Origin: Burkholderiales bacterium
Lineage (GTDB): Bacteria > Pseudomonadota > Gammaproteobacteria > Burkholderiales > SG8-39
Direction: 5' to 3'
NCBI GenBank assembly: GCA_050248795.1
Contig: JBFWRS010000003.1
Coordinates: 6,500 to 70,499 of the forward strand
Length of the DNA stretch: 64,000 bases
The notes under the pieces were generated by a model. The model had not been told where the DNA came from, did not search any database, and saw nothing but the letters and a program-made list of their open reading frames with translations. The translations under genes and the position numbers were made by a program. This document shows, piece by piece, positions 27,706 through 61,969 of this stretch (position 1 is the first letter of the stretch; the number at the start of each line of letters is the position of its first letter).

Positions 27706-28083
27706 ATGAAAGTCATTCGCACCGCTGCAGTCGCGCTGTTCGCCGGTTCGGCACTGGTCCTGGGCGGCGTCGCCGTCGCCAAGGGTTCGAAAGGCGAAGG
27801 CTGCGTTGAGCGCCAGTCGTCGATGCAGGGCGAGGGCCATGGCCGTCACGCGCAAGGCGAGAAGCACGAGCACGGCCGCCACGCCGAAGGCGAGCGGCAC
27901 CAGCACGGCAGCCACGCACAAGGCGAAGCGGGCCGGGGTCATGGCCACGGCAATCACGAGCGCATGGGCCGCATGGGCGGCAACCACCAGCACATGGCGG
28001 CGATGCACGCGCGCATGGCGGCCATGCACGCCGCCCCGGCTGCCGAAGAAGCGCCGGCCGCCGCCGAGCCGCAGAAGCAGTAG
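27706..28083 (+). CDS. secreted His/Met-rich repeat protein (putative periplasmic metal binder)
   Basis: Signal peptide MKVIRTAAVALFAGSALVLGGVAVA. Mature part is dominated by H, G, E, M and A (HGRHAQGEKHEHGRHAEGERHQHGSHAQGE...HQHMAAMHARMAAMHA). AGGAG 7 nt before the ATG and its own terminator. Confidence 0.7.
   Translation: MKVIRTAAVALFAGSALVLGGVAVAKGSKGEGCVERQSSMQGEGHGRHAQGEKHEHGRHAEGERHQHGSHAQGEAGRGHGHGNHERMGRMGGNHQHMAAMHARMAAMHAAPAAEEAPAAAEPQKQ
27838..27936 (+). repeat. three imperfect 33-bp tandem repeats inside the His-rich gene
   Basis: catggccgtcacgcgcaaggcgagaagcacgag / cacggccgccacgccgaaggcgagcggcaccag / cacggcagccacgcacaaggcgaagcgggccgg, encoding 11-aa H-G-x-H-A-x-G-E units. Confidence 0.75.
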
Positions 28084-28101
28084 TACCGATCCACGCCGGA
28101 C

Positions 28102-28125
28102 CCGGGCCGCGACGCGGCCCGGTTT
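28102..28125 (+). terminator. stem-loop terminator after the His-rich gene
   Basis: CCGGGCCGC-GAC-GCGGCCCGG perfect 9-bp stem followed by TTT. The short T tract merges into the FNR box. Confidence 0.5.
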
Positions 28126-28137
28126 GATCCCGGTCAA
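28124..28137. promoter_or_regulatory. FNR/Anr box (ccoI promoter)
   Basis: TTGATcccgGTCAA, 33 bp from the ccoI ATG. TAGCAT hexamer begins 21 bp after the box. Confidence 0.7.
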
Positions 28138-28170
28138 GCCTGCATCGGCGAATGCGGCTAGCATCCGCCG

Positions 28171-30657
28171 ATGAATCCCGTCTCCCGGCCCGCCTGTTTT
28201 CACTGCGGGCTGCCCGTATTGCCGCCCTCGGCCGAGCGCGCCGTGGTGCTGGGCGCGGCGCGCGAATTCTGCTGCAGCGGCTGCGCCGCGGTGGCGCAGG
28301 CGATCGTCGCCGGCGGTTTCGAGCGCTATTACGAAACGCGCGAGTTGCCGCAGCCGGGCGCAGAGCCCGGCCCGCTTCCCGCCGGCCTGCCGCCTGCCTC
28401 CACCTACGATGACCCGGCCGCGCAACGCCAGTTCGTGCTGCCGCGTGGCGAGCACGAGCGCGAAGCCACGCTGATCCTTGACCGGCTGCACTGCACCGCC
28501 TGCGTGTGGCTGACCGAATCCTGGCTGCGCCGGCAGCCGGGCATCCTGCGCGCGGACGTAAACGCCGGCACGCGCCGCGCGGTGGTGGCCTGGGATGCAC
28601 GAGAAACCCGTCTGGGCGCGATCATCGAGGCGATCCGCGCCATCGGCTACGAAGCCTGGCCCTGGGATCCGGCACGCCAGGACGCGGTCGAGCGCGGCGA
28701 ACGCAGGCGCGCGTTGTGGCGCCTGTTCGTCGCCGGGTTCGGCGCCATGCAGGTGATGATGTACGCGTTTCCCGCATACATCGACGGCGGCGAGACCATG
28801 TCCGCCGACGCAGAAAGCCTGATGCGCTGGGCGAGCCTGATCCTGACGCTGCCGGTGCTGCTGATCTCCTGCCAGCCGTTCTTCGCATCCGCTTGGCGCG
28901 AGCTGCGCCTTCGCCGCGTCGGCCTGGACACGCCGATTTCGCTCGGCATCGTCGGCGGCTTCGCCGCCAGTGCCTGGGCGACCGTCAGCGGCGCGGGCGA
29001 GGTGTACTTCGATTCGATCGCCATGCTGGTGTTCCTGCTGCTCGCCGCGCGCTGGGCCGAGCTTGCCGCGCGCGGCCGCGCCGGGCGCGAGCTCGATCGC
29101 GTGCTGCGCTGGATGCCCGAGGTGGCGCTGCGCCTGCGCGACCCGGCGGATGCGGCAAGCGTCGAGCGCGTTGGCGCGCACGAACTCGCCGCCGGCGAGC
29201 ACGTGCTGGTGCCCGCGGGCGAGCGCGTGCCTGCCGACGGCGTGGTGGTGCACGGCGCATCGGGCGTCGACGAGTCGCTGCTCACCGGTGAAGCACGCGC
29301 GGTGGCCAAGTCCGCGGGCTCGGCGCTGGCCGCAGGCGCGGTGAACCTGGAGCAGCCGCTGGTGATGCGCGTCACGCACGCCGGCGCCGACACCGGCGCC
29401 GCCGCCATCGGCCGCCTGGTCGAACGCGCCGCGGCTACGCGCCCGCAACTGGTTTCCGCTGCCGACCGCATCGCCGGCACCCTGACCGCGGTGGTGCTGG
29501 GCGCCGCCGCGCTTGCGTTCATAGTCTGGCTGCAACTGGAACCCGGGCGCGCGGCATGGATCGCGGTCGCGGTGCTGGTGGCGACCTGTCCGTGCGCGCT
29601 GGCGCTGGCGGCACCGATCGCGCTGACCGCGGCAAGCTCGCGGCTGCTGGCGCGCGGCATCGTGCAGACCCGCGGCCGCGCCATCGAGGCGCTGGCGCGC
29701 GCGACCGACGTGGTCTTCGACAAGACCGGCACGCTCACGCAAGGCCAGCTCTCGCTCGCCGCGACCACCACGCACGCGCAGCGCAGCGTAGCCGAGTGCC
29801 TTGCCATCGCGCAGGCGCTGGAAGCGGGCAGCCGCCACCCGGCGGCGCGCGCGTTCCTGCAGGCGCCGGCGCAGCCGCTGCCCGCGGTATCGGACCTGTT
29901 GCAGGTGCCCGGCCGTGGTGTCGAGGCGCGCGTCGCGGGCGAGCGCATGCGCATCGGCAGCGCTTCGTTCTGCGCCGAACTCGCAGGCAGCGCCGTGCCG
30001 CCGACCGACGCTTCGGTGCACCTGGCGGGCGAGCCCGGCTGGCTCGCCTCGTTCAGGCTGGAAGACGCGACGCGTACCGAGGCGCAGTCGCTGCTCGCCA
30101 CGCTACGCGGCGCGGGGCTGCGCATCCATCTCGCCAGCGGCGACCGCACGCAAGCGGTGCGCGCGCTTGCCGCGGAACTGGGCATCGAAGACTGGCGCGC
30201 CGAATGCACGCCGGCAGACAAGCTCGCGCTGGTGGCGGCGCTGCAGCGCGAGGGCCGTACCGTGGTGATGGTGGGCGACGGCCTGAACGACGCGCCGGTG
30301 CTGGCTGGTGCCGATGCGTCGGTCGCGGTGGCGGGCGGCTCGGACGTGGCGCAGTTGACCGCGGATCTCGTGCTGCTCGGCGCGCGCGTCGGCGAACTCG
30401 CCGCCGCGCTTGCCATCGCGCGTCGCACCATGGCGATCATCCGGCAGAACTTCCTCTGGGCGCTGGGCTACAACCTCGTCGTGCTGCCGCTGGCGATGTG
30501 GGGCATCATCGGGCCCTGGGAGGCCGCCATCGGCATGGCGGCCAGTTCGGTCATCGTCGTCGTCAATGCGCTGCGGGTGTTCGAGCGCACGACATCCGGA
30601 AGCACATGGAAAGCCTCGCCATCCTCGTTCCCCTCTCCGTCGCGCTCGTATTCCTGA
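28171..30657 (+). CDS. ccoI: copper-translocating P1B-type ATPase CcoI/FixI
   Basis: N-terminal CFHCGLP, CPC in the TM helix (VATCPCALA), DKTGTLT and GDGLNDAP. Followed by ccoS. Confidence 0.9.
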   Translation: MNPVSRPACFHCGLPVLPPSAERAVVLGAAREFCCSGCAAVAQAIVAGGFERYYETRELPQPGAEPGPLPAGLPPASTYDDPAAQRQFVLPRGEHEREATLILDRLHCTACVWLTESWLRRQPGILRADVNAGTRRAVVAWDARETRLGAIIEAIRAIGYEAWPWDPARQDAVERGERRRALWRLFVAGFGAMQVMMYAFPAYIDGGETMSADAESLMRWASLILTLPVLLISCQPFFASAWRELRLRRVGLDTPISLGIVGGFAASAWATVSGAGEVYFDSIAMLVFLLLAARWAELAARGRAGRELDRVLRWMPEVALRLRDPADAASVERVGAHELAAGEHVLVPAGERVPADGVVVHGASGVDESLLTGEARAVAKSAGSALAAGAVNLEQPLVMRVTHAGADTGAAAIGRLVERAAATRPQLVSAADRIAGTLTAVVLGAAALAFIVWLQLEPGRAAWIAVAVLVATCPCALALAAPIALTAASSRLLARGIVQTRGRAIEALARATDVVFDKTGTLTQGQLSLAATTTHAQRSVAECLAIAQALEAGSRHPAARAFLQAPAQPLPAVSDLLQVPGRGVEARVAGERMRIGSASFCAELAGSAVPPTDASVHLAGEPGWLASFRLEDATRTEAQSLLATLRGAGLRIHLASGDRTQAVRALAAELGIEDWRAECTPADKLALVAALQREGRTVVMVGDGLNDAPVLAGADASVAVAGGSDVAQLTADLVLLGARVGELAAALAIARRTMAIIRQNFLWALGYNLVVLPLAMWGIIGPWEAAIGMAASSVIVVVNALRVFERTTSGSTWKASPSSFPSPSRSYS

Positions 30658-30794
30658 TCGGCGTGCTGTTCTGGCGCGCGCTGCACGGCGGCCAATTCGA
30701 GGACCTGGACAAGCCCGGCGTCGACGTGCTGATGGACGATGACACGCCGCCCAGGTCGAAGAGGCAGGGGCAGGGCCCCGAGCCGCGTAGCTAG
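30606..30794 (+). CDS. ccoS: cbb3 oxidase maturation protein CcoS/FixS
   Basis: 62 aa. MESLAILVPLSVALVFLIGVLFWRALHGGQFEDLD is typical of CcoS. Start lies 52 nt inside the ccoI 3' end in another frame. Confidence 0.8.
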   Translation: MESLAILVPLSVALVFLIGVLFWRALHGGQFEDLDKPGVDVLMDDDTPPRSKRQGQGPEPRS

Positions 30795-31189
30795 CCCATC
30801 GTCAGGGCTTTTTCGATCGCGATCTTGTACAGCACGCGCTGCTCGGTCGCGCTGCGGTTCGGGTATTTGTCCTGGCCGAGGTATTTCTTCGCCATCGCGT
30901 CGATGTGCGCGTCGGCGCCTTCCTGCGTGATCTCCCGCACGCGCCCGCGCACCTCGACGTAGCGGTAGGGATTGTCCGGGTCGATGACGGTGACTGCGAC
31001 GCGCGGGTCGCGCCGCACGTTCTTGTCCTTGCGGCGTCCCACCGCCGAATTCACCCAGAGCTCGCCGTCGTGGTAGTCGACCCACACCGGCGTGGTCTGC
31101 GGACTGCCGTCTGGCATCAGCGTGGTGAAGGCGCAGAAGGCCTTCTTCTGGAACAGGTCGAGGTACTTCTCCGGGAATGCAGCGGCCAT
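30791..31189 (-). CDS. pyridoxamine 5'-phosphate oxidase (PPOX)-family flavoprotein
   Basis: TTLMPDGSPQTTPVWVDY..LWVNSAVGRRKDKNVRRDPRVAVTVID...YVEVRG split-barrel pattern. Confidence 0.75.
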   Translation of the reverse strand: MAAAFPEKYLDLFQKKAFCAFTTLMPDGSPQTTPVWVDYHDGELWVNSAVGRRKDKNVRRDPRVAVTVIDPDNPYRYVEVRGRVREITQEGADAHIDAMAKKYLGQDKYPNRSATEQRVLYKIAIEKALTMG

Positions 31190-31278: not shown

Positions 31279-31292
31279 TTGATGCAGGTCAA
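31279..31292. promoter_or_regulatory. FNR/Anr box (ccoN promoter)
   Basis: TTGATgcagGTCAA inside the 22-bp palindrome GGATTTGA-TGCAGG-TCAAATCC. TAGCAT hexamer 21 bp downstream. 62 bp from the ccoN ATG. Confidence 0.8.
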
Positions 31293-31354
31293 ATCCGCCG
31301 CCCGGCGCTTGCCTAGCATTGCGGTGCGGCACGTACCGCGCACGGGGAAGGCAT

Positions 31355-32782
31355 ATGGCTGCCGAAACGGCATACAACTACAAGGTGGTCCGCCAGTTTG
31401 CGGTGATGACCGTAATCTGGGGCGTCGTCGGCATGCTGGTCGGCGTCATCATCGCGGCGCAACTGATCTGGCCGGACCTCAACTTCGGCCAGTCGTGGCT
31501 GTCGTACGGCAGGCTGCGGCCGCTGCACACCAATGCGGTGATCTTCGCCTTCGGCGGCTGCGCGCTGTTCGCCACCTCGTACTACGTCGTGCAGCGCACC
31601 GCGCATGCGCGGCTGTTCTCGGACGGGCTGGCCGCGTTCACGTTCTGGGGCTGGCAGGCGGTGATCGTGCTCGCCGCGATCACGCTGCCGCTGGGGATCA
31701 CCAGTTCGAAGGAATACGCCGAGCTCGAGTGGCCGATCGACATCCTGATCGCGCTGGTGTGGGTGTCCTACGCCATCGTGTTCTTCGGCACGCTGGCGAA
31801 GCGCAAGGTCGAGCACATCTACGTCGCCAACTGGTTCTTCGGCGCCTTCATCATCACGGTGGCGATCCTGCACATCGTCAACAGCGCGGCGATGCCGGTG
31901 ACCTTCTGGAAGTCCTACTCGGCCTACGCCGGCGCGCAGGACGCCATGGTGCAGTGGTGGTACGGGCACAACGCGGTGGGCTTCTTCCTCACCGCCGGGT
32001 TCCTCGGCATGATGTACTACTTCATCCCGAAGCAGGCCGGGCGGCCGGTATACTCGTACCGCCTGTCGGTGGTGCACTTCTGGGCGCTGATCTTCACCTA
32101 CATGTGGGCGGGGCCGCACCACCTGCACTACACCGCGCTGCCCGACTGGACGCAGTCGCTCGGCATGGTGTTCTCGCTGATCCTGCTCGCGCCCTCGTGG
32201 GGCGGCATGATCAACGGCATCATGACGCTGTCGGGGGCGTGGCACAAGCTGCGCACCGACCCGATCCTCAAGTTCCTCATCGTCTCGCTGTCGTTCTACG
32301 GCATGTCGACCTTCGAGGGGCCGATGATGTCGATCAAGACGGTGAACGCGCTGTCGCACTACACCGACTGGACCGTGGGCCACGTGCACAGCGGGGCGCT
32401 CGGCTGGGTCGGCCTGGTGTCGATGGGCTCGATCTACTACCTGCTGCCGCGGCTCTATGGCCGCAGCGAGATGTTCAGCGTGCCCGCGATCAACCTGCAC
32501 TTCTGGATCTCCACCATCGGCATCGTGCTGTACATCGCCGCGATGTGGATCGCCGGCGTCATGCAGGGGCTGATGTGGCGCGCGGTGGGCGAGGACGGCA
32601 CGCTCACCTACACCTTCGTCGAGAGCGTCAAGGCAACGTACCCGTTCTATGTCATCCGCCTGCTGGGCGGGCTCTTGTACCTGTCGGGCATGCTGCTGAT
32701 GACCTGGAACATGGTGAAGACCATCAACGCCGGCCGTGCCGCGGAGGCGCCGATCCCGGCACCCGTGGCCGCGCACGCCTGA
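31355..32782 (+). CDS. ccoN: cytochrome cbb3 oxidase subunit I
   Basis: [15 protein letters not shown] start after GGGGAAGG. 12-TM heme-copper oxidase sequence with HNAVGFF and WAGPHHL motifs. Confidence 0.95.
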
Positions 32783-32821
32783 GATCGCGCGCGTGCGATC
32801 GAAAACAGACGGAGAAAAATA

Positions 32822-33430
32822 ATGCTCAGCCATGACATGATCGAGCGCAACCAGGCGCTGATGATCGTCCTCGTGATCCTGGTGGTGGCGGTCGGCGGCC
32901 TGGTCGAGATCGTGCCGCTGTATTTCCAGAAGACCGTCACCGAACCGGTGGCGGGCCTGAAGCCCTACACCGCGCTGCAGCTTACCGGCCGCGACGTGTA
33001 CGTGCGCGAAGGCTGCTACAACTGCCACTCGCAGATGGTGCGGCCGTTCCGCGCCGAGGTGGAGCGTTACGGCCACTACTCGGTGGCGGGGGAGTTCGTC
33101 TACGACCGCCCGTTCCAGTGGGGCTCGAAGCGCACCGGCCCGGACCTGCACCGCGTCGGCGGGCGCTATTCGGACGAATGGCATCGACTGCACCTGATGG
33201 ACCCGCGCTCGCTGGTGCCGGAGTCGAACATGCCGGCCTACCCGTGGCTGGCGCGCGACCAGGCGAATGCGCGCGACATCCAGGCCAAGATGCGCGTGCT
33301 GCGCACGCTCGGCGCGCCGTACACCGACGCCGAAATCGCGGCGGCGCCCGGGGAACTCAAGGGCAAGACCGAGATGGACGCGGTGATCGCGTACCTGCAG
33401 GTGCTCGGCACCGCGCTGAAGGCGAAATAG
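32822..33430 (+). CDS. ccoO: cytochrome cbb3 oxidase subunit II (monoheme)
   Basis: N-terminal TM and CYNCHSQ heme motif. Confidence 0.95.
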
Positions 33431-33438
33431 GGGAAGCC

Positions 33439-33585
33439 ATGGACATCAACCTGTTGCGGGTCATCGTCACCGTGGCCGCCTTCACGGCGTTCCTCGGCAT
33501 CGTGTTCTGGGCCTACGGGCCTTCGCGCAAGGCGCGCTTCGAGCGCGACGCCATGCTGCCCTTCGAGGACGGAGAACCGGAATGA
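33439..33585 (+). CDS. ccoQ: cbb3 oxidase subunit CcoQ
   Basis: 48-aa single-TM peptide between ccoO and ccoP. ATGA overlap with ccoP. GGGGAAG RBS. Confidence 0.75.
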   Translation: MDINLLRVIVTVAAFTAFLGIVFWAYGPSRKARFERDAMLPFEDGEPE

Positions 33586-34499
33586 GCATTTTCACGAGCG
33601 GTTTCTGGGACTGGTACATCGGCGTCGCGACCATCGCGTCCATCATCGGCTGCGCCATATTCCTGAAGATGCAGAGCGTCAAACGGGTCGCGGCCGAGCA
33701 TGCGGGCGGGACCACCGAGACCACCGGGCACGTCTGGGACGAGGACCTCGGCGAATACAACAACCCGCTGCCGCGCTGGTGGGCATGGCTCTTTTACCTC
33801 ACCATCGTGTTCGCGATCGGCTACGTGGTGCTGTATCCGGGCCTCGGCAGCTGGCGCGGCACGCTGGGTTGGACCCAACTCGGACAGCTCGACGACGAGA
33901 ACAAGCGTGCCGACGCGCTGTACGGGCCGCTGTTCGAGCGCTTCGCGGCGCAGGACGTGAAGAAGCTCGCCGCCGACCCGCAGGCGCTGGCGGTGGGCCA
34001 GCGCCTGTTCCTGAATCACTGCGCGCAATGCCATGCGTCCGACGGCGGCGGCTCGCGCGGCTTTCCCAGCCTCGCCGACAGCGACTGGCTGTGGGGCGGC
34101 ACGCCGGAAGCCATCAAGGCCACGATCGAGAACGGGCGCAACGGCATCATGCCGCCGTTCGGTCCGGCGCTGGGCGAACAGGGGGCGAAGGACACCGCGC
34201 ACTACGTCATGTCGCTGTCGGGCCTGGCGCACGACTCGATCCGCGCCGCGCGCGGCAAGGCGAGCTTCGCCACCAACTGCGTCGCCTGCCACGGCGCCGA
34301 GGGCAAGGGCAACCCGGCGCTGGGTGCGCCGAACCTCACCGACAAGGTCTGGCTGTACGGCGCCGGGGAGCCGACGATCATCGAAACCATCACCAGGGGC
34401 CGCAACAACCAGATGCCGGCGCACAAGGACATCCTGACGCCGGCCAAGATCCACCTGCTCACGGCTTACGTGATGTCGCTGTCCGGCCCGTCAAGGTGA
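33582..34499 (+). CDS. ccoP: cytochrome cbb3 oxidase subunit III (diheme)
   Basis: TM anchor plus two heme c motifs, CAQCH and CVACH. Confidence 0.9.
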   Translation: MSIFTSGFWDWYIGVATIASIIGCAIFLKMQSVKRVAAEHAGGTTETTGHVWDEDLGEYNNPLPRWWAWLFYLTIVFAIGYVVLYPGLGSWRGTLGWTQLGQLDDENKRADALYGPLFERFAAQDVKKLAADPQALAVGQRLFLNHCAQCHASDGGGSRGFPSLADSDWLWGGTPEAIKATIENGRNGIMPPFGPALGEQGAKDTAHYVMSLSGLAHDSIRAARGKASFATNCVACHGAEGKGNPALGAPNLTDKVWLYGAGEPTIIETITRGRNNQMPAHKDILTPAKIHLLTAYVMSLSGPSR

Positions 34500-35893: not shown

Positions 35894-35897
35894 TGAC

Positions 35898-36347
35898 ATG
35901 GAAACGCAGAACTCGCAGCCGTGGTACCGGGAGCCGTGGCCGTGGATCCTGATGTCGGGTCCCGCGGCGGTGGTGGTCGCGGGCATCGTCACCACGTGGA
36001 TCGCGTTCGCCTCGGCAGACGGCCTGGTGGCCGATGACTATTACCGCCAGGGGCTGGCGATCAACCAGGAACTGAGCCGCGGCCAGCGCGCGCTGGACCT
36101 CGGCATCTCTGCGCGCATCGACTTGTCCGCCGGCCGGCTGCGCGTCACGCTCGCGGGCGCGGCGCCCGAGGCGCTGGTCGCGCACCTCGCGCACGGCACC
36201 CGCGCCGGCCACGACATGCGCCTGCGGCTCGCCCCGGTGGGCGGCGGCGCCTACGAGGCCGCGGTGCCGGCGTTGCCGCCCGGGCGGTGGAAAGCGGTCA
36301 TCGAGGACCCGCGGCGAGAGTGGCGCATCGCGAGGGATGTGCCATGA
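35898..36347 (+). CDS. ccoH: FixH/CcoH-family cbb3 assembly protein
   Basis: PWYREPWPWILMSGPAAVV...DDYYRQG signature. Confidence 0.8.
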   Translation: METQNSQPWYREPWPWILMSGPAAVVVAGIVTTWIAFASADGLVADDYYRQGLAINQELSRGQRALDLGISARIDLSAGRLRVTLAGAAPEALVAHLAHGTRAGHDMRLRLAPVGGGAYEAAVPALPPGRWKAVIEDPRREWRIARDVP

Positions 36348-39440: not shown

Positions 39441-39448
39441 CATTCCGC

Positions 39449-53519: not shown

Positions 53520-53552
53520 GCCGTCATTTTTTCCCAATGCAGCCGTGGCCCT

Positions 53553-53566
53553 TTGACGCAGATCAA
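53553..53566. promoter_or_regulatory. FNR/Anr box centred between divergent groEL paralogue and kinase-like gene
   Basis: TTGACgcagATCAA, exactly 33 bp from each start codon (53519 and 53600). AAAAAT (minus) and GAGCAT (plus) hexamers lie 21 bp from the box. Confidence 0.7.
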
Positions 53567-53599
53567 GCCGGCAGCCGGCTCGCCGCGGAGCATCGTGCC

Positions 53600-55157: not shown

Positions 55158-56135
55158 CTATCGATGCGCCATCACGCGCGCGATCATTTCGTCGAGGTCG
55201 GCGTGGTGGTTCAGCACCTGGTCTACCGCCTGCGAGATCGGCATGTCGACGCCGAGCTTGCGCGCGAGCGCGACGATGCCTTCGGCCGAGGCCGCGCCCT
55301 CGGTGACCACGGTGCGGCCGGCCAGTACCTCGGCGGCGGATTTACCCTCGCCGAGGGCGACCCCGAACGAGGTGTTGCGCGAATGCAGGCTGTTGGCGGT
55401 CAGCATCATGTCGCCGATGCCGGCGAGGCCGTCGAAAGTCTCGCGGCTCGCGCCTTTCGCCAGGCCGAGGCGCACCGCCTCGGTCAGTCCGAGCGTGATG
55501 ACGGTGGCACGCGCGTTCTCGCCCAGCTTCCTGCCGGCGGCGACGCCGCTGGCGATGGCGATGACGTTCTTCATCACGCCGCCGATCGCGGCGCCGATCA
55601 GGTCGTCGATCGGGTGCACGCAGAAATGCGGGTTGGCGATGGTGGTGGCGAGTGCCCGCGCCAGCGACAGGTCGGCCGCGGCCAGCGCGACACCGCAGGG
55701 CAGGTCCTCGGCCAGTTCGCGCGCGAAGGATGGCCCGGAGAGGATCGCGATGCGCGCCTGTGGCAGTGTTTCGGCCAGAACCTCGGGCATCAGCGCCAGC
55801 GTGCCGCGCTCGATGCCCTTGGAGCAGCTCACCACCGGCAAGCCGGGTTTCAGGTGCGGCCGCAGCGCGGTGGTGACCTCGCGCATGCGCTGTGCCGGCG
55901 GCGCGAGCACCAGCACTTCGGCGTGCGCGGTTGCCGCGGCGAGGTCGCCGGTGGCGACGATGCCTGGAACGAGCTGCGCGCCGGCGAGGAACTGCCTGTT
56001 AACCCCCGCGCTGTTGATAGAGTCGACCACTTCCGGCTCGCGCGCCCACAGGAGGACGTCGTGTCCGGACCTGCGCACGACGCATGCCATGGCGGTGCCG
56101 AACGCGCCACCGCCGATGATGCCGATGTTTGCCAT
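55158..56135 (-). CDS. gpsA: NAD(P)H-dependent glycerol-3-phosphate dehydrogenase
   Basis: MANIGIIGGGAFGTA Rossmann motif, GPSFA and GVMKNVIAIA motifs. The track ORF to 56438 is an upstream extension in the same frame. Confidence 0.85.
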   Translation of the reverse strand: MANIGIIGGGAFGTAMACVVRRSGHDVLLWAREPEVVDSINSAGVNRQFLAGAQLVPGIVATGDLAAATAHAEVLVLAPPAQRMREVTTALRPHLKPGLPVVSCSKGIERGTLALMPEVLAETLPQARIAILSGPSFARELAEDLPCGVALAAADLSLARALATTIANPHFCVHPIDDLIGAAIGGVMKNVIAIASGVAAGRKLGENARATVITLGLTEAVRLGLAKGASRETFDGLAGIGDMMLTANSLHSRNTSFGVALGEGKSAAEVLAGRTVVTEGAASAEGIVALARKLGVDMPISQAVDQVLNHHADLDEMIARVMAHR

Positions 56136-56168
56136 GGTCAAATCATGCCTTGGAAGCCCGGCCTGCGC

Positions 56169-56182
56169 TTGACCGGGATCAA
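56169..56182. promoter_or_regulatory. FNR/Anr box between divergent gpsA and FGGY kinase
   Basis: TTGACcgggATCAA, 33 bp from the gpsA ATG (56135) and 30 bp from the FGGY ATG (56213). CATGAT hexamer 21 bp away on the gpsA side. Confidence 0.7.
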
Positions 56183-56212: not shown

Positions 56213-57676
56213 ATGACGACGATGGCGGCGGATTCCGGGCGCCTGGTGCTGGCGATAGACCAGGGCACGCACGCGAGCAGGGCGCTGGTGCTGGATGCGC
56301 GCGGGCAGATCCTCGCCTCGGCGGAGCAGGGCATCGGCCTCGCCCGCCCCCAGGCCGACTGGGCGGAGCAGGATGCGGACGAGGTCGTCGCCTCGGTGTT
56401 CGCGGCGGTGGACGCGGCGACGCGCGCGCTCGGTGCACGCCGCGCGGACCTCGCCGCCGCCGGCCTGGCGTGCCAGCGCGCCAGCGCGGTGTGCTGGAAC
56501 CGGCGCGACGGCACGCCGCTGTCGCCTATCTTCAGCTGGCAGGACCGTCGCGCGCACGCGTGGATAGACCAGCTCGCGCCGCATGGCGAGGACGTGCACC
56601 GGCGCACCGGCCTGTTCCTGTCGCCGCACTATGGCGCGTCGAAGCTGCGCTGGGCGCTGGACCACCTGCCCGCGGTGCGCGCGGCGCGGGACGCGGGGAC
56701 GCTGGCGTGGGGGCCGATGGCGAGCTTCGTCGCCTTCCGCCTGCTGAAGGAGCGGCCGCTGTACGCGGATCCGCAGTGTGCGGCGCGCACGCAACTGTGG
56801 AACGTGCACACGCGGGACTGGGATCCGGAGCTGCTGGCGCTGTTCGGCCTGCCGGGCGGATTCCTGCCGGCGAGCTTTCCCACCTGCGGCGCCTGGGGCA
56901 CGCTGCAGGCCGGCGGCGCGAGCGTGCCGCTGACCGCGGTGAACGGCGACCAGTCCGCGGCGATGTTCGCCTTCGGCTGGCCGGAAGGCGATTCGGCGTA
57001 CATCAACATCGGCACCAGCGCGTTCGTGCAGCGCGCGCTGGAACGCTATCCGCAAGGCGTGACGCGCCAGCTCACCGGCATCATCCTGCAAGACGGCGAC
57101 ACCATGCTGTACATGGTGGAGGGCAACGTCAACGGCGCCGGCACCGCACTGGAGTGGTTCGCCAACCAGTTCCCGGTCGAAGGCGACCTGGTGGCGCAAC
57201 TGTCGCATTGGCTCGAGCGTCCGGCCGCTGGGGTGCCGCTGTTCCTGAACGGCATCGCCGGCCTCGGCGGTCCGTTCTGGCAGGCGGAGTTCGCCTCGCG
57301 CTTCGTCGATGATGGGGGCGAGAGTGAAACCTGGCAGAAGGCGGTGGCGCTGGTGGAGAGCATGGCGTTCCTGCTGCAGGCGAACATCGACTACATGGCC
57401 GGCCATGTGCCGGCGCCGCGGCGGATCCGCGTCAGCGGCGGACTGTCGCGCTTCGATGGACTGTGCGCGCGGCTCGCTTCCCTGAGCGGCCTGCCGGCGC
57501 ACCGGCGCGACGACCCCGAGGCGAGCGCGCGCGGCATCGCCTACCTCGCCGCAGGACGGCCCGCGGGCTGGAACTCCGGTGCGCGCGAGGAAATCTTCCC
57601 GCCGCGGCCGGATGCGGGCCTGCGCCAGCGCTACCGGCGCTGGCGCGCGCTGATGGCCGAGGCCACCGGGATCTGA
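56213..57676 (+). CDS. FGGY-family carbohydrate (glycerol-like) kinase
   Basis: LAIDQGTHASRALV N-terminal ATPase motif and FGGY N- and C-terminal domains. Alternative ATG at 56222. Confidence 0.8.
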   Translation: MTTMAADSGRLVLAIDQGTHASRALVLDARGQILASAEQGIGLARPQADWAEQDADEVVASVFAAVDAATRALGARRADLAAAGLACQRASAVCWNRRDGTPLSPIFSWQDRRAHAWIDQLAPHGEDVHRRTGLFLSPHYGASKLRWALDHLPAVRAARDAGTLAWGPMASFVAFRLLKERPLYADPQCAARTQLWNVHTRDWDPELLALFGLPGGFLPASFPTCGAWGTLQAGGASVPLTAVNGDQSAAMFAFGWPEGDSAYINIGTSAFVQRALERYPQGVTRQLTGIILQDGDTMLYMVEGNVNGAGTALEWFANQFPVEGDLVAQLSHWLERPAAGVPLFLNGIAGLGGPFWQAEFASRFVDDGGESETWQKAVALVESMAFLLQANIDYMAGHVPAPRRIRVSGGLSRFDGLCARLASLSGLPAHRRDDPEASARGIAYLAAGRPAGWNSGAREEIFPPRPDAGLRQRYRRWRALMAEATGI

Positions 57677-57688: not shown

Positions 57689-57702
57689 TTGACGCAGATC
57701 AA
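57689..57702. promoter_or_regulatory. FNR/Anr box (hsp20-usp-usp operon promoter)
   Basis: TTGACgcagATCAA, identical to the 53553 site. AACAAT hexamer 21 bp downstream. 63 bp from the hsp20 ATG. Confidence 0.75.
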
Positions 57703-57765: not shown

Positions 57766-58188
57766 ATGGCGAACATCGTGCGTTCCGGGTCGGTCGAGGA
57801 CATATTCGGCGACCTGATGAAGGGCTTCTGGGTGAAGCCGCTGTCCATGCCCGAGGCGCAGGACATGAAGATAAAGGTAGACGTGACCGAGGGCGACAAG
57901 GCCTACACGGTGCACGCGGAGATCCCCGGCGTGAAGAAGGAAGACATCCAGGTCGAGGTCGACGGCAACGTGGTGTCGATCCGCGCCGAGGTCAAGCGCG
58001 AGTCCGAGGAGAAGAAGGGCGAGAAGGTGCTGCGCAGCGAGCGCTACTACGGCCGCGTCGAGCGCAGCTTCAGCCTGCCGGTCGATATCGACGACAAGGC
58101 GACCGTGGCGAAGTACAAGGACGGCGTGCTGGACCTGACGCTGCCGAAGAAGGCCGCCGCGAGCACGCGGCGCATCGCGGTAGAGTAA
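57766..58188 (+). CDS. Hsp20/alpha-crystallin small heat-shock protein
   Basis: AAGGAGG RBS. Alpha-crystallin domain (...YTVHAEIPGVKKEDIQVEVDGNVVSIRAE...GVLDLTLPK). Confidence 0.9.
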   Translation: MANIVRSGSVEDIFGDLMKGFWVKPLSMPEAQDMKIKVDVTEGDKAYTVHAEIPGVKKEDIQVEVDGNVVSIRAEVKRESEEKKGEKVLRSERYYGRVERSFSLPVDIDDKATVAKYKDGVLDLTLPKKAAASTRRIAVE

Positions 58189-58229: not shown

Positions 58230-58676
58230 ATGTACAAACGCATACTTGTTCCGGTCGACGGCAGCGCCAGCGCGAACCGCGGCCTGCAGGAGGCGCTGCG
58301 CCTGGCGAGGAACCAGAAGGCGCGCCTGGTCCTGCTGCACGTGGTCGAGGAGCAGTTCGTCACCCAGGCGGCGGAGGCGATGGTGTTCTCGGAGAAGCTG
58401 TTCGAGGCCATGCGCGCAAGCGGTCGCAAGGTGCTGGCGCGTGCCGAGGCGCTCGCGCGCAAGGGCGGCGTCAAGGCGCTGGCGGTGCTGCGCGAATCGG
58501 TTACCGTGCCGGTCGCCGACATGGTGGTGCGCGAGGCGCGCAGGCAGCGCGCCGACCTGATCGTCATCGGGACGCATGGCCGGCGCGGGCTCACGCGCGC
58601 GGTGATGGGCAGCGATGCCGAGGATGTCGTGCGCTCGTCCCCGGTACCGGTATTGCTCGTGCGCGCCAGGCGCTGA
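58230..58676 (+). CDS. universal stress protein (single domain)
   Basis: ILVPVDGS... and ATP motif GTHGRRGLTRAVMGS (G-x2-G-x9-GS). Confidence 0.85.
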   Translation: MYKRILVPVDGSASANRGLQEALRLARNQKARLVLLHVVEEQFVTQAAEAMVFSEKLFEAMRASGRKVLARAEALARKGGVKALAVLRESVTVPVADMVVREARRQRADLIVIGTHGRRGLTRAVMGSDAEDVVRSSPVPVLLVRARR

Positions 58677-58692: not shown

Positions 58693-59532
58693 ATGAACTA
58701 CAAGACCATCGTCGTACACATGGACCGCAGCGCGCGCCGTGCGCAACGCCTGGACATCGCGCTCGACATGGCGCGGACGCACGACGCGCACCTGGTGGGC
58801 CTGTTCGCGCTCAGCACGCCGCGGATCCCGTCCTACGCGCTCGCCGAGGCCGGCAGTACGGTGCTCGAGCAACTGCGGCTGCGGCAGGCCGAGCAGGCCG
58901 CGGAGGCGGAAGCCGAATTCCGCAAGGCGGCGGCGCGGCACGGCGTCAGCACCGTCGAGTGGCGCGTGTCGCGCCAGGACGCGGTGGGCGCGGCGTGCCT
59001 CAGCGCACGCTACGCGGACCTGCTGATCGCCGGGCAACCGGAGCCGGCGGATGCGATGCCGGCGGGCATTGCGGCGGGTTTTCACGAAGAACTCCTGCTG
59101 TCCACCGGCGGGCCGGTGCTGTTCGTGCCCTATGCCGGGCGCTTCGAGCGTGTCGGCCAGCGCGTGCTGGTCGCCTGGGACGCGGGCCGCGAAGCGGCGC
59201 GCGCGGTGTCGGACGCGCTGCCGCTGCTGGCGCGCGCGGCACATGTGGAGGTCGTGGTGTTCGATCCGGAGAAAAGCCTCGCGCACGGCGACGTGCCGGG
59301 CGCGGACATTTCGCTTTACCTGGCCCGCCACGGCGTCAAGGCCTCTGCGGCGCAGCTCTCCGGCGCCGGCATGGATGTGGGCAACCAGATCCTGTCGCGC
59401 GCAGCCGACCTGGGATCGGACCTGATCGTCATGGGCGGTTACGGCCATTCGCGCATGCGCGAGCTGATGCTCGGTGGGGCGACGCGCACGGTGCTGGAGA
59501 CGATGACCGTCCCGGTGCTGATGTCTCACTGA
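58693..59532 (+). CDS. tandem-domain universal stress protein
   Basis: Two USP halves (IVVHMDRS..., VLVAWDAG...) and C-terminal MGGYGHSRMRELMLGGAT. GGAGAAAG RBS. Confidence 0.85.
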   Translation: MNYKTIVVHMDRSARRAQRLDIALDMARTHDAHLVGLFALSTPRIPSYALAEAGSTVLEQLRLRQAEQAAEAEAEFRKAAARHGVSTVEWRVSRQDAVGAACLSARYADLLIAGQPEPADAMPAGIAAGFHEELLLSTGGPVLFVPYAGRFERVGQRVLVAWDAGREAARAVSDALPLLARAAHVEVVVFDPEKSLAHGDVPGADISLYLARHGVKASAAQLSGAGMDVGNQILSRAADLGSDLIVMGGYGHSRMRELMLGGATRTVLETMTVPVLMSH

Positions 59533-60770
59533 AGCAGCAGTTCCACCGCCCACGCGGCGGCGATGCCGGCGGCCAGGCCGACCGCGACCCGCCAGCCAAA
59601 GCGCACGCCGCCGGTGGCGAATGCGCCGACCGTCTTGCTCACGGCATTGGTGGAGATCGCCAGCAGGCAGGAGAATGCCAGCACATCCGCCGGGAGCCGG
59701 CCGTCGGCGGCAAGCGCGAGCAGCGAAGCGCCGGCGGAATGCGCATCGAGTATTCCGGCCACCGCGGCGCCCACCTGCGCCGCCGCATTGCCGGCAAACT
59801 GGTTCGCCAGACCCACCGCGGTGCTCAGCGCCGCCACGCCCACCGCGAATCCGCTGGCGTGCCAGAGGTTGAAGGCGCGGCCCGGGCGATTCTCCGGCGG
59901 CTTCGCGCCGGCGCTGCTGCGGTAGAACCAGGCGGCGCACAAGACGGTGGCGACGAGGCCGGCGGCGAGCGGCGCCGCAAGCACCGCGAGCGCGGGCGCA
60001 TGGATGCTCGCGGTGATCACCGCGAACAGGATGAAGGTCGCCATGGTGGCGAACAACGAGCCGGCGACGCTCGCCTCCAGCAGCGCAGGTTCCTTGCGCA
60101 CGCGCGCGCCGAGCGCAATGATGGTCGCGGTGCTGGAGACGAAGCCCGACGCCAGGCCCGACAGCGCCATGCCGCGCTGGGTGCCCAGCCAGCGCTGCGC
60201 GATGTAGCCGGCACCCTGCATCGCCATGATGACCACCGCGTAGGTCCACACCACGTGCGGGTTGGTGCCGCCCAGCCAGGCGATCGCTTCGTCGGGCGTC
60301 AGCGGCAGCATGATCAGCACCGCGCCCGCGAACAGCAGCGCGTCGCGCATCTCCCGCTCGGTCAGCACCTGCGTGGAAAAACGGTGCAGCCGGCTGCGCG
60401 CGGCGAGCAGACCGGCAACCACCACCGCGCCGGCGGCGGCGACACCGGGCTGCGGGATGGCGACGACGCCGAGCAGGTAGGTGACGAAGAAGGCGAGCTC
60501 GGTGGTGACCCCGGGGTCGCTCTCACGGCTGCGCAGGTAGGCGATGGCGCTCAACGCAAGGATCATCACCGCGCCCGCGGCGACCAGCAGCGGTTGCTCC
60601 AGTGCCTGCGCGATCGCGCCCGCCAGCGCGGCAAGCGTGAAAGTGCGCACGCCGGCGAGCGCGCGATCGGGGCCGGCGCCCTTGCGCCGTTCCCGCTCGA
60701 CGCCGATCAGCAGCCCGCTGCCCAGGGCGACGAGGAACCCGAGCAGCAGGTTCTCAGGGAGCGCAAGCAT
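59526..60770 (-). CDS. MgtC/SapB-family membrane protein with DUF4010-like C-terminal extension
   Basis: N-terminal LLIGVERERRKG MgtC motif. About 12 hydrophobic segments. Confidence 0.7.
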   Translation of the reverse strand: MLALPENLLLGFLVALGSGLLIGVERERRKGAGPDRALAGVRTFTLAALAGAIAQALEQPLLVAAGAVMILALSAIAYLRSRESDPGVTTELAFFVTYLLGVVAIPQPGVAAAGAVVVAGLLAARSRLHRFSTQVLTEREMRDALLFAGAVLIMLPLTPDEAIAWLGGTNPHVVWTYAVVIMAMQGAGYIAQRWLGTQRGMALSGLASGFVSSTATIIALGARVRKEPALLEASVAGSLFATMATFILFAVITASIHAPALAVLAAPLAAGLVATVLCAAWFYRSSAGAKPPENRPGRAFNLWHASGFAVGVAALSTAVGLANQFAGNAAAQVGAAVAGILDAHSAGASLLALAADGRLPADVLAFSCLLAISTNAVSKTVGAFATGGVRFGWRVAVGLAAGIAAAWAVELLLQ

Positions 60771-60809
60771 GCAGGATCTTACCCGCAGCTTGCGCGCGGG
60801 CGGGGAGCG

Positions 60810-61553
60810 CTAGTGGCTCAGTTCCAGCACGCGCTCGAGCCGGGAGATGTCGGCGATGCGCACGTGCTTCTGCTGCACTTCGATCAGGCCGTCCTTCTGG
60901 AACGCCGAGAACAGCCGGCTCACCGTCTCCAGCTTCAGCCCCAGGTAGCTGCCGATTTCCTCGCGCGTCATGCGCAGGTGGAAGTCGGACTGCGAATAGC
61001 CGCGGCGCACGAAGCGCTTCGAGAGGTTGATGAGGAAGGTGGCCAGGCGCTGCTCGGCCCGCATCGACCCCAGCAGCATCATCACGCCGTGGTCGCGCAC
61101 GATCTCGCGCGCCAGCACTGCGTGCAGGTTGCGCTGCAGCGCGGGTATCTCGCGCGCCATCTGCTCGATCAGCGCATAGGGCAGCACGCAGACTTCGCTG
61201 TCCTCCAGCGCGATCGCCGTGCCGTTGTAGGTCCCGGTGCCGATGCCGTCCATGCCGAGCAGCTCGCCGCCCATGAAGAAGCCGGTGACCTGCTCGCGCC
61301 CTTCGCCGTCGATGAGGATGGTCTTGAAGAAGCCGCTGCGGATCGAGTACACGGCGTTGAACGCCGCGCCGGCATTGAACAGCACGTCGCCGCGCTTCAT
61401 GCGGCGGCGCGCGTAGACCACGTTTTCCATTCGCGCCATGTCCTCGGCGCCCATCGACGCCGGCAGGCACAGTTCGCGCAGGTTGCAGCTGGAGCAGGTA
61501 ACCTCGAACTTCCTCGGGGCGGCTTCCTGCCTGATCGCGGTAACGGCGTACAT
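60810..61553 (-). CDS. fnr: FNR/Anr-family oxygen-sensing transcription regulator
   Basis: N-terminal CSSCNLRELC (C-x2-C-x5-C) plus central Cys (EVCVLPY), cNMP-like barrel and HTH with the ETVSR recognition motif. AAGGAG RBS before the ATG at 61553. Confidence 0.9.
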   Translation of the reverse strand: MYAVTAIRQEAAPRKFEVTCSSCNLRELCLPASMGAEDMARMENVVYARRRMKRGDVLFNAGAAFNAVYSIRSGFFKTILIDGEGREQVTGFFMGGELLGMDGIGTGTYNGTAIALEDSEVCVLPYALIEQMAREIPALQRNLHAVLAREIVRDHGVMMLLGSMRAEQRLATFLINLSKRFVRRGYSQSDFHLRMTREEIGSYLGLKLETVSRLFSAFQKDGLIEVQQKHVRIADISRLERVLELSH

Positions 61554-61564
61554 GACGTACTCCT

Positions 61565-61969
61565 TCAGTGTCTGGCTGCGGCGCGCGCGGCGATCACTTC
61601 GCCGATGCGCTCGAACTCGGTGCTCTTGTCGAAGAAACTGCCTGCGCCCAGCCGCCGCGCGATGCGCCGGTAAGGCTCGGACGAGGAGTTGGAGAGCATG
61701 CACAGCTCGATGTCGGGTGCGGCGTCGTGTATCGCCTGCAGCACCTCGAAACCGCTGCCCTCGTCGAGCATGAAATCGACGATGACCAGGTCGGGGTGCG
61801 CGGCGAGGATGGCGCGGATCGCCTGCTGCGCGCCGCTGGCGTGTCCCACGGCGCGCGCGCCGGCGAGCGTCACCAGGCCTTCCAGGCGCTCGCGCACCAG
61901 AGGAGAATCCTCGACGAAGAAAACGCGTACCGGGGCTGCGACGGGCGGGGTGGCGGTGGCGCACTGCAT
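61565..61969 (-). CDS. single-domain (receiver-only) response regulator
   Basis: VFFVEDS, phospho-acceptor-like IVDFML and conserved FDKS Lys. No output domain. Its stop lies 11 bp upstream of the fnr start codon. Confidence 0.8.
   Translation of the reverse strand: MQCATATPPVAAPVRVFFVEDSPLVRERLEGLVTLAGARAVGHASGAQQAIRAILAAHPDLVIVDFMLDEGSGFEVLQAIHDAAPDIELCMLSNSSSEPYRRIARRLGAGSFFDKSTEFERIGEVIAARAAARH

Follow-up and report, generated by a model that had tools for sequence, protein, structure and literature searches.

What is a stretch of bacterial chromosome built for when perfect FNR boxes recur between its genes for respiration, chaperones and proteases and when it also encodes an FNR-type regulator of its own? 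The question is raised by contig JBFWRS010000003.1 of assembly GCA_050248795.1, a metagenome-assembled genome (MAG) of an uncultured soil/water Burkholderiales bacterium. Positions 6,500 to 70,499 of this contig (the window, 64 kb, whose own numbering is used here) were analyzed together with 7.5 kb read past the right end (L001), 71.5 kb in all. Genes were called from third-position GC, Pfam and NCBIfam, complemented by the public gene calls for the source contig. About 35 neighboring genes form a cluster of ~40–44 kb that runs from ~24.9–28 kb in the window to ~4.7 kb past its right end. Our answer, given with high confidence, is that this is a chromosomal low-oxygen regulon cluster of the FNR/Anr type, predicted to be activated by its Fe-S FNR from class II sites. 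An earlier note on the window had delimited the system to 27706–61969; the cluster is larger, with a Pat-like gene at 24909–27632 on the left and a ninth box and hemN past the right end.

An exact search of the window for TTGANNNNNNTCAA (TTGA-N6-TCAA) recovered eight sites, starting at 28124, 31279, 39055, 42583, 48428, 53553, 56169 and 57689, which are the eight that the earlier note had listed. Only 0.19 sites are expected, and in 100 dinucleotide-preserving shuffles there was never more than one site (0/100 reached eight). As that note had also claimed, the sites are intergenic (8/8), keep perfect TTGA and TCAA cores, and match TTGAT-N4-ATCAA at nine of ten positions, or at eight of ten for the box at 48428; three share a GCAG core, and one 14-mer occurs twice, at 53553 and at 57689. 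A ninth perfect box, TTGATTTGGGTCAA, lies past the right edge of the window, immediately upstream of hemN, which encodes the oxygen-independent coproporphyrinogen oxidase and is a classic target of FNR and Anr. All nine fall within ~1.8 kb of intergenic DNA, spread over a 43.8-kb span. An equal box density elsewhere, coding DNA included, had been named as grounds for giving up the idea; no perfect box is present in the 28-kb left flank, nor in the ~42 kb of coding DNA of the cluster. Sites with one core mismatch were considered as extra promoters and rejected: the ten of them are evenly spread and several are intragenic, like background. None of these one-mismatch sites lies in the box-less intergenic gaps of the cluster, and no promoters were added from them. 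The bases flanking the nine boxes are biased as well: among the 18 orientations (mirror positions included), 16 have A or G at +1 after TCAA, and 14 have C at +2. The consensus may accordingly extend to g-Y-TTGA-N6-TCAA-R-c and be GC-rich at its edges, whereas E. coli FNR sites have A/T-rich flanks.

The distance between the boxes and the putative −10 hexamers is constant. In 10 of the 18 orientations an nAnnnT hexamer follows the box at exactly 21 nt (TAGCAT, TAGCAT, TAGGCT, CAGGAT, GAGCAT, AACAAT, CATAGT, AAAAAT, CATGAT and CATGGT), and in one more at 22 nt (CAGCAT), against a background of 2.3% for A-N3-T (binomial P = 1.7e-12). Other spacings between 15 and 29 nt score 0 or 1, save for 24 nt, which scores 3. 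The orientations that obey this rule all face a gene (11/11), and the seven that do not comprise three that point away from any gene start and four that face genes. If transcription is assumed to start ~7 nt past the hexamer, the box centers would lie at −40.5 to −41.5. FNR and CRP activate class II promoters from position ~−41.5, and with start sites predicted in this manner the box positions agree with class II FNR promoter geometry. The boxes at 39055, 53553 and 56169, and possibly the one at 31279, serve divergent gene pairs.

For comparison with other genomes, the bifunctional APH-like/P-loop kinase encoded at 53600–55141 was used as a cluster-specific marker, and a profile of 19 homologs yielded 80 loci from species-representative genomes. 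The closest relative of this kinase among 5.8 billion proteins is only 65% identical. Over the 80 loci, 83 out of 194 box orientations carry nAnnnT at 21–22 nt, compared to about eight at any other spacing. The closest related locus (L002, 21.5 kb) belongs to Betaproteobacteria bacterium RBG_16_66_20, a MAG different from the source. It has eight boxes and homologs of ten cluster proteins with 48–80% identity: the geranylgeranyl (GG)-reductase-family protein, CFA synthase, hyp114, LonC, hyp220, GroEL, a DHH-like protein, a universal stress protein (USP), FNR (70%) and HemN (71%). In the promoters of kinase, hemN, hyp114 and CFA synthase, L002 (at 63–80% protein identity) and the source agree in the box and the −10 hexamer but no longer in the spacers; both genomes even have the very same hexamer upstream of the kinase (GAGCAT) and of hemN (CATAGT). 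Other uncultured betaproteobacterial loci carry eight (L007), seven (L010) and six boxes (L075), or five in 7.9 kb (L029), as opposed to 0–1 boxes in kinase-bearing Pseudomonas loci. Two further loci resemble lxa, the low-oxygen-activated locus in Burkholderia cenocepacia, namely L082 of B. stagnalis and L086 of Burkholderia sp. FXe9, both of which lie on secondary replicons from a plasmid collection that carry a kinase homolog. In the 41 kb of L082, 12 of the 13 boxes are followed by a −10 hexamer at 21–22 nt. The lxa half of L086 has seven boxes, against none in the neighboring 21 kb. Because the 21–22 nt spacing is fixed and because the boxes are conserved in L002 and in these lxa-type loci, we regard them, on sequence grounds, as real promoter elements.

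The predicted transcription units follow from this arrangement. Box 1 (TTGATCCCGGTCAA, 28124–28137) would be the promoter of ccoI-ccoS, with a 21-nt spacer, TAGCAT (28159–28164), 6 nt and an ATG at 28171. Box 2 (TTGATGCAGGTCAA, 31279–31292) is predicted to drive ccoNOQP-ccoG-fixH through TAGCAT (31314–31319), again after 21 nt, and a leader with GGGGAAGG before ATG 31355; its minus side, which has no −10 hexamer at 21–22 nt, possibly also serves the divergent PNPOx gene. Box 3 (TTGACATGGATCAA, 39055–39068) is divergent, with TAGGCT at 21 nt on the plus side toward the unit of cytochrome c, beta-CASP ribonuclease, FNT channel and DHH-like protein, and CATGGT at 21 nt on the minus side toward CFA synthase and the GG-reductase-family flavoprotein. 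Box 4 (TTGAGCCAGATCAA, 42583–42596) precedes acsA-pdhA-pdhB-E2-ACP with CAGCAT at 22 nt. The putative promoter of hyp114-lonC-hyp220 at box 5 (TTGACCGGCGTCAA, 48428–48441) has a 21-nt spacer, CAGGAT, 6 nt and ATG 48475, in the same layout as in L002. From box 6 (TTGACGCAGATCAA, 53553–53566), also divergent, GAGCAT, 6 nt and GTG 53600 lead into the kinase on the plus side, and AAAAAT, 6 nt and ATG 53519 into groEL on the minus side. Box 7 (TTGACCGGGATCAA, 56169–56182) faces a gpsA-like glycerol-3-phosphate (G3P) dehydrogenase gene on its minus side (CATGAT, 6 nt, ATG 56135) and probably also serves the FGGY kinase on its plus side, which has no good −10 hexamer. Box 8 (TTGACGCAGATCAA, 57689–57702) would be the promoter of hsp20-usp-usp, with a 21-nt spacer, AACAAT and a leader with AAGGAGG before ATG 57766. 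The ninth box is assigned to hemN-dsbD2.

Six of the 11 promoters have a start codon as close as 6–9 nt past the −10 hexamer. These layouts are TAGCAT-6-ATG for ccoI (28159–28173), CAGGAT-6-ATG for hyp114 (48463–48477), AAAAAT-6-ATG for groEL (53517–53531), GAGCAT-6-GTG for the kinase (53588–53602), CATGAT-6-ATG for gpsA (56133–56147) and CATAGT-9-ATG for hemN (L001, 4965–4982). The genes ccoI, groEL, gpsA and hemN lack a Shine-Dalgarno sequence, which the leadered genes of the cluster do have; AGGAG(G), for instance, precedes both first genes at box 3 (cytochrome c and CFA synthase). The metal-binding domain of CcoI starts at residue 8, the model for the G3P dehydrogenase aligns from residue 1, and the N-termini of HemN and the kinase agree with those of their homologs. 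Because these four N-termini fit models or homologs, the start codons are not artefacts of open reading frame extension. The layout is retained in L002 for the kinase (there with ATG), hemN, hyp114 and hyp220 (2175–2189, 9989–10003 and 19237–19252 in L002). Among the 108 rule-obeying promoters of all loci, the ATGs of long open reading frames peak sharply at offset 6: 17 occur at offsets 5–9, 12 of which are outside the window, none at offsets 10–16, and a broad distribution of leadered genes begins at 17 nt. About half of the promoters (those of ccoI, hyp114, groEL, kinase, gpsA and hemN) would consequently yield leaderless mRNAs. In B. cenocepacia, only ~90 leaderless non-tRNA transcripts are known genome-wide, enriched for transcriptional regulators (PMC4603805), for which reason the density here would be unusual. 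A leaderless design, if true, would be unusual for a betaproteobacterium.

The regulator that may read these boxes is encoded within the cluster. The fnr gene (60810–61553, minus strand) specifies a [4Fe-4S]-type FNR/Anr regulator of 247 amino acids (Pfam cNMP_binding 2e-15, HTH_Crp_2 2.8e-19, Crp 4.4e-13). The Cys cluster and ETVSR helix ascribed to it beforehand are both present. In the alignment with the solved FNR (5cvr and related entries), each ligand shares a column with its counterpart, namely Cys20, Cys23 and Cys29 of a C-X2-C-X5-C arrangement and Cys122 from the sensor domain. Residues 208–213, LETVSR, represent the recognition helix, of the E--SR type. An E--SR helix reads TTGA. Structure matches favor FNR strongly (E = 4e-51 for solved FNR, 2e-16 for the best FixK2, 4i2o, and ~1e-10 for CRP), and the regulators of L002, L075, L043 and B. 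stagnalis retain the cysteine ligands. By these sequence criteria, the cluster regulator would be a direct Fe-S oxygen sensor.

From these features we infer FNR binding and oxygen dependence along the following lines. When oxygen falls, the cluster FNR would retain its [4Fe-4S] cluster, dimerize and bind the nine TTGA-N6-TCAA boxes. Positioned ~40.5–41.5 bp upstream of the predicted start (class II), it would contact RNA polymerase and switch transcription on. Three, possibly four, of the boxes would each drive two divergent promoters, so that at least 11 transcription units would respond. Their predicted output falls into four groups: high-affinity respiration and its maturation (ccoNOQP, ccoGH, ccoIS, hemN); membrane remodeling by CFA synthase and the GG-reductase-family enzyme; carbon and acetyl handling by AcsA-PDH(E1/E2)-ACP (pyruvate dehydrogenase, PDH; acyl carrier protein, ACP), G3P dehydrogenase with FGGY kinase, and the FNT channel; and persistence, which may rely on the LonC-like protease, GroEL, Hsp20, USPs, the APH/P-loop kinase, and the beta-CASP ribonuclease with a DHH phosphoesterase.

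Several points weigh against this account. The NCBIfam Fnr model (PRK11161) scores 224.1 bits against a cutoff of 228, with its full length covered. The sides of the boxes that face the PNPOx, GNAT, FGGY and PAS kinase genes lack a convincing −10 hexamer at 21–22 nt. Enrichment at the level of the genome is argued from the 28-kb flank, from shuffled sequence and from unrelated loci. Burkholderiales often hold several FNR paralogs, and the cluster FNR need not be the sole or main binder of the boxes. Finally, the fnr operon itself is box-less and has a low-GC insertion of 2.6 kb, containing an insertion sequence (IS), directly upstream.

The surroundings of fnr bear on this last point. A receiver-only response regulator (61565–61969, minus; Pfam Response_reg) lies directly upstream of fnr and in the same orientation, and an MgtC/DUF4010 membrane protein (59526–60770, minus) downstream, which together make up a minus-strand RR-fnr-mgtC unit. 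Autoregulation of fnr was considered and rejected: no box precedes this unit, and on the minus side of the hemN box a −10 hexamer at 21–22 nt is missing in both the source and L002. The insertion runs from 62050 to ~64620, past the window end (6930–9500 in L001 coordinates), and has 48–58% GC (~57% within the window) compared to ~70% around it. It carries genes for a 307-amino acid protein (62108–63031, minus) and a 111-amino acid protein, both unassigned, and for an IS1595-family transposase (63103 to past the window end, plus); no inverted repeats of at least 14 nt flank its ends. It splits the RR-fnr operon from the two-component genes and the hemN side, where a GerE-type response regulator, a PAS-HisKA_3 sensor kinase and hemN follow in this order. 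L002 has no insertion, and there the kinase, the regulator and fnr are consecutive. The insertion may have uncoupled fnr from its ancestral upstream genes.

This arrangement also counts in favor of the main rival explanation, a FixLJ-type layered cascade or a second Crp/Fnr paralog on the same boxes. The main reader of the boxes would then be another Crp/Fnr paralog, similar to FixK or Dnr, that stands last in a FixL/FixJ-like PAS-HisKA_3/GerE cascade, with the cluster FNR as one layer or a fine-tuner. FixK, Dnr and FNR all recognize TTGA-N6-TCAA, a PAS sensor kinase and a NarL/FixJ-type regulator stand beside hemN in the cluster and directly upstream of fnr, co-oriented, in L002, and a receiver-only regulator precedes fnr. 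A 2025 review moreover proposes a FixLJ–FixK–lxa order for the B. cepacia complex (PMC12071387). The encoded regulator, however, has the complete Cys set of a direct oxygen sensor, no second Crp/Fnr gene is found in the 71.5 kb examined, and a cascade and direct sensing are compatible with each other. We therefore consider this explanation unlikely, though it is the one that survives best. The rhizobial FixLJ-FixK2 system itself resembles the cluster in its targets (fixNOQP, fixGHIS and hemN), its box, and a nearby PAS kinase with a FixJ/NarL-type regulator, but FixK2 has no Fe-S cluster and its expression depends on FixLJ, whereas the cluster regulator has the full FNR ligand set.

A second explanation, which we deem very improbable, is that the boxes answer to nitric oxide or nitrite through a Dnr/NnrR-type regulator, so that the cluster would be an accessory regulon for nitrosative stress or denitrification. 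Dnr/NnrR sites do have an identical core, an FNT-family formate/nitrite channel is encoded in the cluster and NnrS on a related Leisingera plasmid. Yet the 71.5 kb examined contain no nir, nor, nos or nar genes, the FNR Cys cluster of the encoded regulator is absent from Dnr/NnrR, and the best-understood targets, cbb3 oxidase and hemN, are genes of oxygen limitation. That the palindromes are a chance product or a dispersed, non-regulatory (REP-like) repeat, as the frequency of short palindromes in intergenic DNA and the two identical 14-mers might suggest, is effectively refuted by the shuffles, the differing flanks of the identical sites, the fixed −10 distance (P ~2e-12), the boxes kept in orthologous L002 promoters despite spacer divergence, the same geometry in lxa-type loci, and the induction of the B. 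cenocepacia counterpart at low oxygen (PMC3721108).

With an FNR/Anr-type regulon cluster as the preferred reading, the closest known system is lxa in B. cenocepacia J2315, to which the earlier note had likened this one. Its 50 genes are induced 2- to 240-fold at 6% oxygen and are needed for anoxic survival; it contains the motif TGA-N6-TCA at 17 intergenic points and the Anr-like BCAM0287, with a response regulator and a kinase, inside (PMC3721108). The annotated gene order of L086 reproduces the lxa list (USP, Hsp20, nitroreductase, BON, SulP, TIGR00730, cytochrome c, alcohol dehydrogenase, fnr, response regulator, USPs and acetate kinase), with the kinase homolog at the lxa edge. The likeness was borne out in the FXe9 and B. 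stagnalis loci, which share the box, the spacing and gene families with the cluster; the L082 regulator is 49% identical to the cluster FNR and has the same cysteines. Both systems are tens-of-kb clusters with many intergenic boxes, an Fe-S Anr/FNR regulator of their own beside a response regulator, and a 21-nt distance from box to −10 hexamer. Seven families are shared: the kinase, USPs, Hsp20, cytochrome c (annotated in L086), beta-CASP ribonuclease, P-type ATPase, and FNR with its adjacent response regulator. A synteny comparison, by contrast, gave no gene order in common with BCAM0275a–BCAM0323, most genes differ both ways, and the shared families are only 31–49% identical (tblastn against L082; L086 annotation). 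Confined to lxa are six USPs, polyhydroxyalkanoate synthesis, acetate kinase/Pta, alcohol dehydrogenases, a class II ribonucleotide reductase, nitroreductases, BON and SulP, whereas only the present cluster has cbb3 with ccoGHIS, hemN, LonC, GroEL, AcsA-PDH(E1/E2)-ACP, CFA synthase, the glycerol module, MgtC and PNPOx. It also differs from lxa in that many of its promoters look leaderless. Burkholderia has been reported to be without cbb3 oxidases (PMC9104464). By this comparison, we regard the cluster as the same kind of system as lxa and not as an lxa ortholog. The lxa/Anr-type low-oxygen regulon cluster is thus already known in principle; what appears to be new is the cargo, the joining of cbb3 and hemN with persistence genes, the putative leaderless design, the recurrence across lineages and the probable connection with clusters on plasmids and of the DosR type.

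The cbb3 oxidase genes, hemN and USPs are established targets of FNR, Anr and FixK. The USPs and Anr control of cbb3 are treated in PMC3721108 and PMC9104464. The regulons of P. aeruginosa Anr and E. coli FNR share with the cluster the [4Fe-4S] sensor, the E--SR helix, the TTGAT-N4-ATCAA box, its position at ~−41.5, and cbb3, hemN and USP targets. They are scattered over the chromosome, however, and the regulator gene does not lie amid its targets, whereas ~40 kb suffice here for the regulator gene, nine boxes and at least 11 promoters.

The gene content ascribed to the segment in the earlier note (cbb3 with assembly genes, lipid modification, acyl-CoA and 2-oxoacid metabolism, a LonC-like protease, an orphan GroEL and Hsp20) was matched by Pfam and NCBIfam. 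The respiratory part begins with ccoI (28171–30657, plus), a copper P-type ATPase (Pfam E1-E2_ATPase, ATPase-cat_bd and HMA; TIGR01525), followed by ccoS/fixS (30606–30794, plus), whose peptide was read directly. The genes ccoN, ccoO, ccoP, ccoG and fixH span 31355–36347 (plus; Pfam COX1, FixO, FixP_N/Cytochrome_CBB3, Fer4_18/FixG_C and FixH), and ccoQ (33439–33585, plus), likewise read directly as a peptide, completes the cbb3 set together with ccoS. Between the two units lies the PNPOx-family flavoprotein gene (30791–31189, minus; Pfam PNPOx_N). Directly upstream of ccoI, a box-less gene (27706–28083, plus) encodes a secreted His/Met-rich protein of 125 amino acids with a signal peptide, a repeat region (HGRHAQGEKHEHGRHAEGERHQHGSHAQGE...MAAMHARMAAMH) and no Pfam match, which may be a periplasmic copper binder.

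Lipid modification is represented by CFA synthase (37732–38970, minus; Pfam CMAS, NCBIfam) and the GG-reductase-family flavoprotein (36582–37721, minus; Pfam FAD_binding_3, NCBIfam), a pair that is kept in L002. The divergent unit at 39132–42574 (plus; Pfam, NCBIfam) encodes cytochrome c, beta-CASP ribonuclease, FNT channel and a DHH/DHHA1 protein. The latter, a putative DHH/DHHA1-like phosphoesterase of 317 amino acids (41621–42574, plus), was assigned from weak co-linear Pfam hits, motifs and a RecJ profile hit. It is a recurrent neighbor of the kinase in at least nine loci (e.g., L002 11532–12473). Its Pfam matches are weak (DHHA1, E = 0.0078; DHH, E = 0.069) and in the correct order, and in ten homologs D10, D12 and D80-H81-H82 are invariant and the G288–G290 motif nearly so. 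A single-sequence search against the PDB returned spurious hits only and was set aside; the profile retrieved RecJ exonucleases only, at the DHH motif, with a weak E of 0.05. The protein is probably a DHH-family phosphoesterase, and its place in one operon with a beta-CASP ribonuclease suggests a role in RNA or nucleotide turnover.

The next unit (42661–47818, plus; Pfam) comprises an acetate-CoA ligase (42661–44376), PDH E1 alpha and E1 beta, an E2-like acetyltransferase and an ACP, without E3. AcsA, E1 alpha and E1 beta score above the NCBIfam cutoffs, and the E1 beta, E2 and ACP genes adjoin GroEL and the kinase in L017, L024 and L047. This E3-less AcsA-PDH-ACP operon hints at an uncharacterized acetyl-transfer route, with the ACP possibly as acceptor. 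A GNAT acetyltransferase (47815–48342, minus; Pfam) follows, the link of which to box 5 is uncertain, as there is no −10 hexamer at 21–22 nt. The probable left end of the cluster is a box-less gene for a Pat-like protein acetyltransferase (24909–27632, minus), with NDP-forming acyl-CoA synthetase domains and a GNAT domain (Pfam). AMP-forming acetate-CoA ligase is the usual Pat substrate. The cluster pairs this Pat-type acetyltransferase at its left edge with the AMP-forming acetate-CoA ligase at 42661–44376, and Pat-like genes also neighbor the kinase in L019 and L051.

The unit behind box 5 comprises hyp114 (from 48475), the LonC-like protease (48794–51247; Pfam LonC_helical, AAA_32 and Lon_C) and hyp220 (51244–51906), all on the plus strand and all conserved in L002. 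No family was detected for hyp114 and hyp220; a comparison of hyp220 with the gene after LonC on a Leisingera plasmid gave no detectable similarity (E = 0.11), so that the position alone is conserved. groEL (51903–53519, minus; NCBIfam GroEL, 816 bits), whose start was taken from the public gene calls, occurs without groES. The kinase (53600–55141, plus) is a bifunctional APH-like/P-loop (AAA_33) protein by Pfam, and its homologs are annotated 'aminoglycoside phosphotransferase family enzyme/predicted kinase'. The earlier note had likened it to Rv2004c of Mycobacterium tuberculosis, a candidate relationship that has indirect support from an actinobacterial homolog located in a DosS/DosR-type cluster. 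A divergent glycerol module consists of the gpsA-like G3P dehydrogenase (55158–56135, minus; NCBIfam) and an FGGY/glycerol-kinase-like kinase (56222–57676, plus). Here the earlier description of the segment, otherwise adequate, had to be corrected, as the gene at 55158–56135 encodes glycerol-3-phosphate dehydrogenase. On the plus strand, hsp20 (57766–58188), usp (58230–58676) and a tandem-domain usp (58693–59532) follow (Pfam; public gene calls), and the three USP domains noted before are therefore distributed over two genes.

The window opens on the left with 28 kb of unremarkable core chromosome (HflKC, HisZ, RNase R, RlmB, DnaB, PhoH and homoserine dehydrogenase). Between this housekeeping flank and the cluster, a dCache-PAS-GGDEF diguanylate cyclase (19948–21843) is encoded, without an FNR box. 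An Rfam scan for RNA elements gave one tRNA-Leu only, remote from the cluster. The term 'island' used earlier is not borne out in the sense of a mobile element: GC rises and an IS insertion lies inside, but neither an integrase nor a tRNA border turned up, and housekeeping genes make up the left flank.

A likeness to the DosR (DevR) regulon of Mycobacterium tuberculosis had been proposed as well, as a case of convergence. It concerns content only, namely Hsp20/alpha-crystallin, multiple USPs, P-type ATPases, the PNPOx family and an APH/P-loop kinase; the NarL-type regulator and its binding site are unrelated to the cluster FNR and its boxes. DosR-type control was rejected, since the palindrome GGGAC-N4-GTCCC does not occur in the 71.5 kb, even with one mismatch allowed. 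Some components are nonetheless homologous, in DosS/DosR-type clusters of Rhodococcus, and convergence thus describes the regulators and not the whole content. On Rhodococcus qingshengii plasmid NZ_CP077418.1 (L085, 228843–254018), a kinase homolog with 31% identity over 405 residues (E = 8e-40), which keeps the HGDL and P-loop motifs, is close to a GAF sensor kinase and response regulator of the DosS/DosR type, four USPs, two P-type ATPases and flavodoxins. No FNR boxes are present in the L085 locus, where this gene family would thus come under another regulator of hypoxia.

In plasmid searches, the LonC-like protease and the kinase matched 11 Leisingera records each, from repABC plasmids of 60–72 kb (Roseobacteraceae). 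Leisingera caerulea plasmid NZ_CP081077.1 (L083 and L084), a repABC plasmid of 69.6 kb, consists almost wholly of low-oxygen and stress genes; to our knowledge, this plasmid cluster has not been the subject of an earlier study. It shares with the cluster the LonC-like protease (50% identity), AcsA-E1-E2-ACP (39–68%; L083 20810–25890), the kinase (38%) and the beta-CASP metallo-beta-lactamase-fold protein (41%), besides five USPs, Hsp20, cytochrome c, a P-type ATPase and a Crp/Fnr regulator. It differs in being an alphaproteobacterial plasmid, in a regulator without the Fe-S cysteines and ETVSR, and in having only five perfect boxes in 69.6 kb. Oxygen-independent ubiquinone synthesis (UbiD/UbiX, U32 peptidases and SCP2) and NnrS are additional there. 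The Leisingera and Rhodococcus loci point to a gene pool that would be partly shared and mobile. A broader possibility, which we put forward tentatively as it is more doubtful than not, is that the cluster is one draw from a pool of 'hypoxic persistence' genes that are exchanged widely, across phyla, and come under the host's own oxygen regulator, and that its FNR promoters are also leaderless for translation in starved cells. The modules of such a pool may include the kinase with the DHH phosphoesterase, the LonC-like protease, the E3-less AcsA-PDH(E1/E2)-ACP unit, USPs, Hsp20, P-type ATPases and the beta-CASP ribonuclease, and the role of regulator may fall to Fe-S FNR in the Burkholderiales, to a different type of Crp/Fnr protein on Roseobacter plasmids and to DosS/DosR in Actinobacteria. 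If true, the leaderless set of cbb3 copper ATPase, HemN, GroEL, G3P dehydrogenase and kinase would be translatable in energy-starved cells, the lxa-DosR likeness would be due in part to common descent or horizontal transfer, and several uncharacterized modules would gain a physiological context.

Whether convergence or a sharing of genes accounts for the likeness of the Anr, Lxa and DosR regulons is a question raised in a 2025 review (PMC12071387). Relevant to it are the Rhodococcus DosS/DosR system, with the kinase, USPs and P-type ATPases beside it, and the gene set of the Roseobacter plasmids. For the Burkholderiales, the finding would mean that the lxa/Anr design, a whole low-oxygen regulon and its sensor gene in one stretch, is not confined to the Burkholderia cepacia complex and recurs with different cargo in uncultured environmental members. 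In the organism studied here, the cluster would couple textbook micro-oxic respiration (cbb3, copper and heme maturation, hemN) to a persistence toolkit, and it would provide a low-oxygen context for the kinase, its DHH-type neighbor, the LonC-like protease with its two small partners, and the E3-less PDH-ACP operon.

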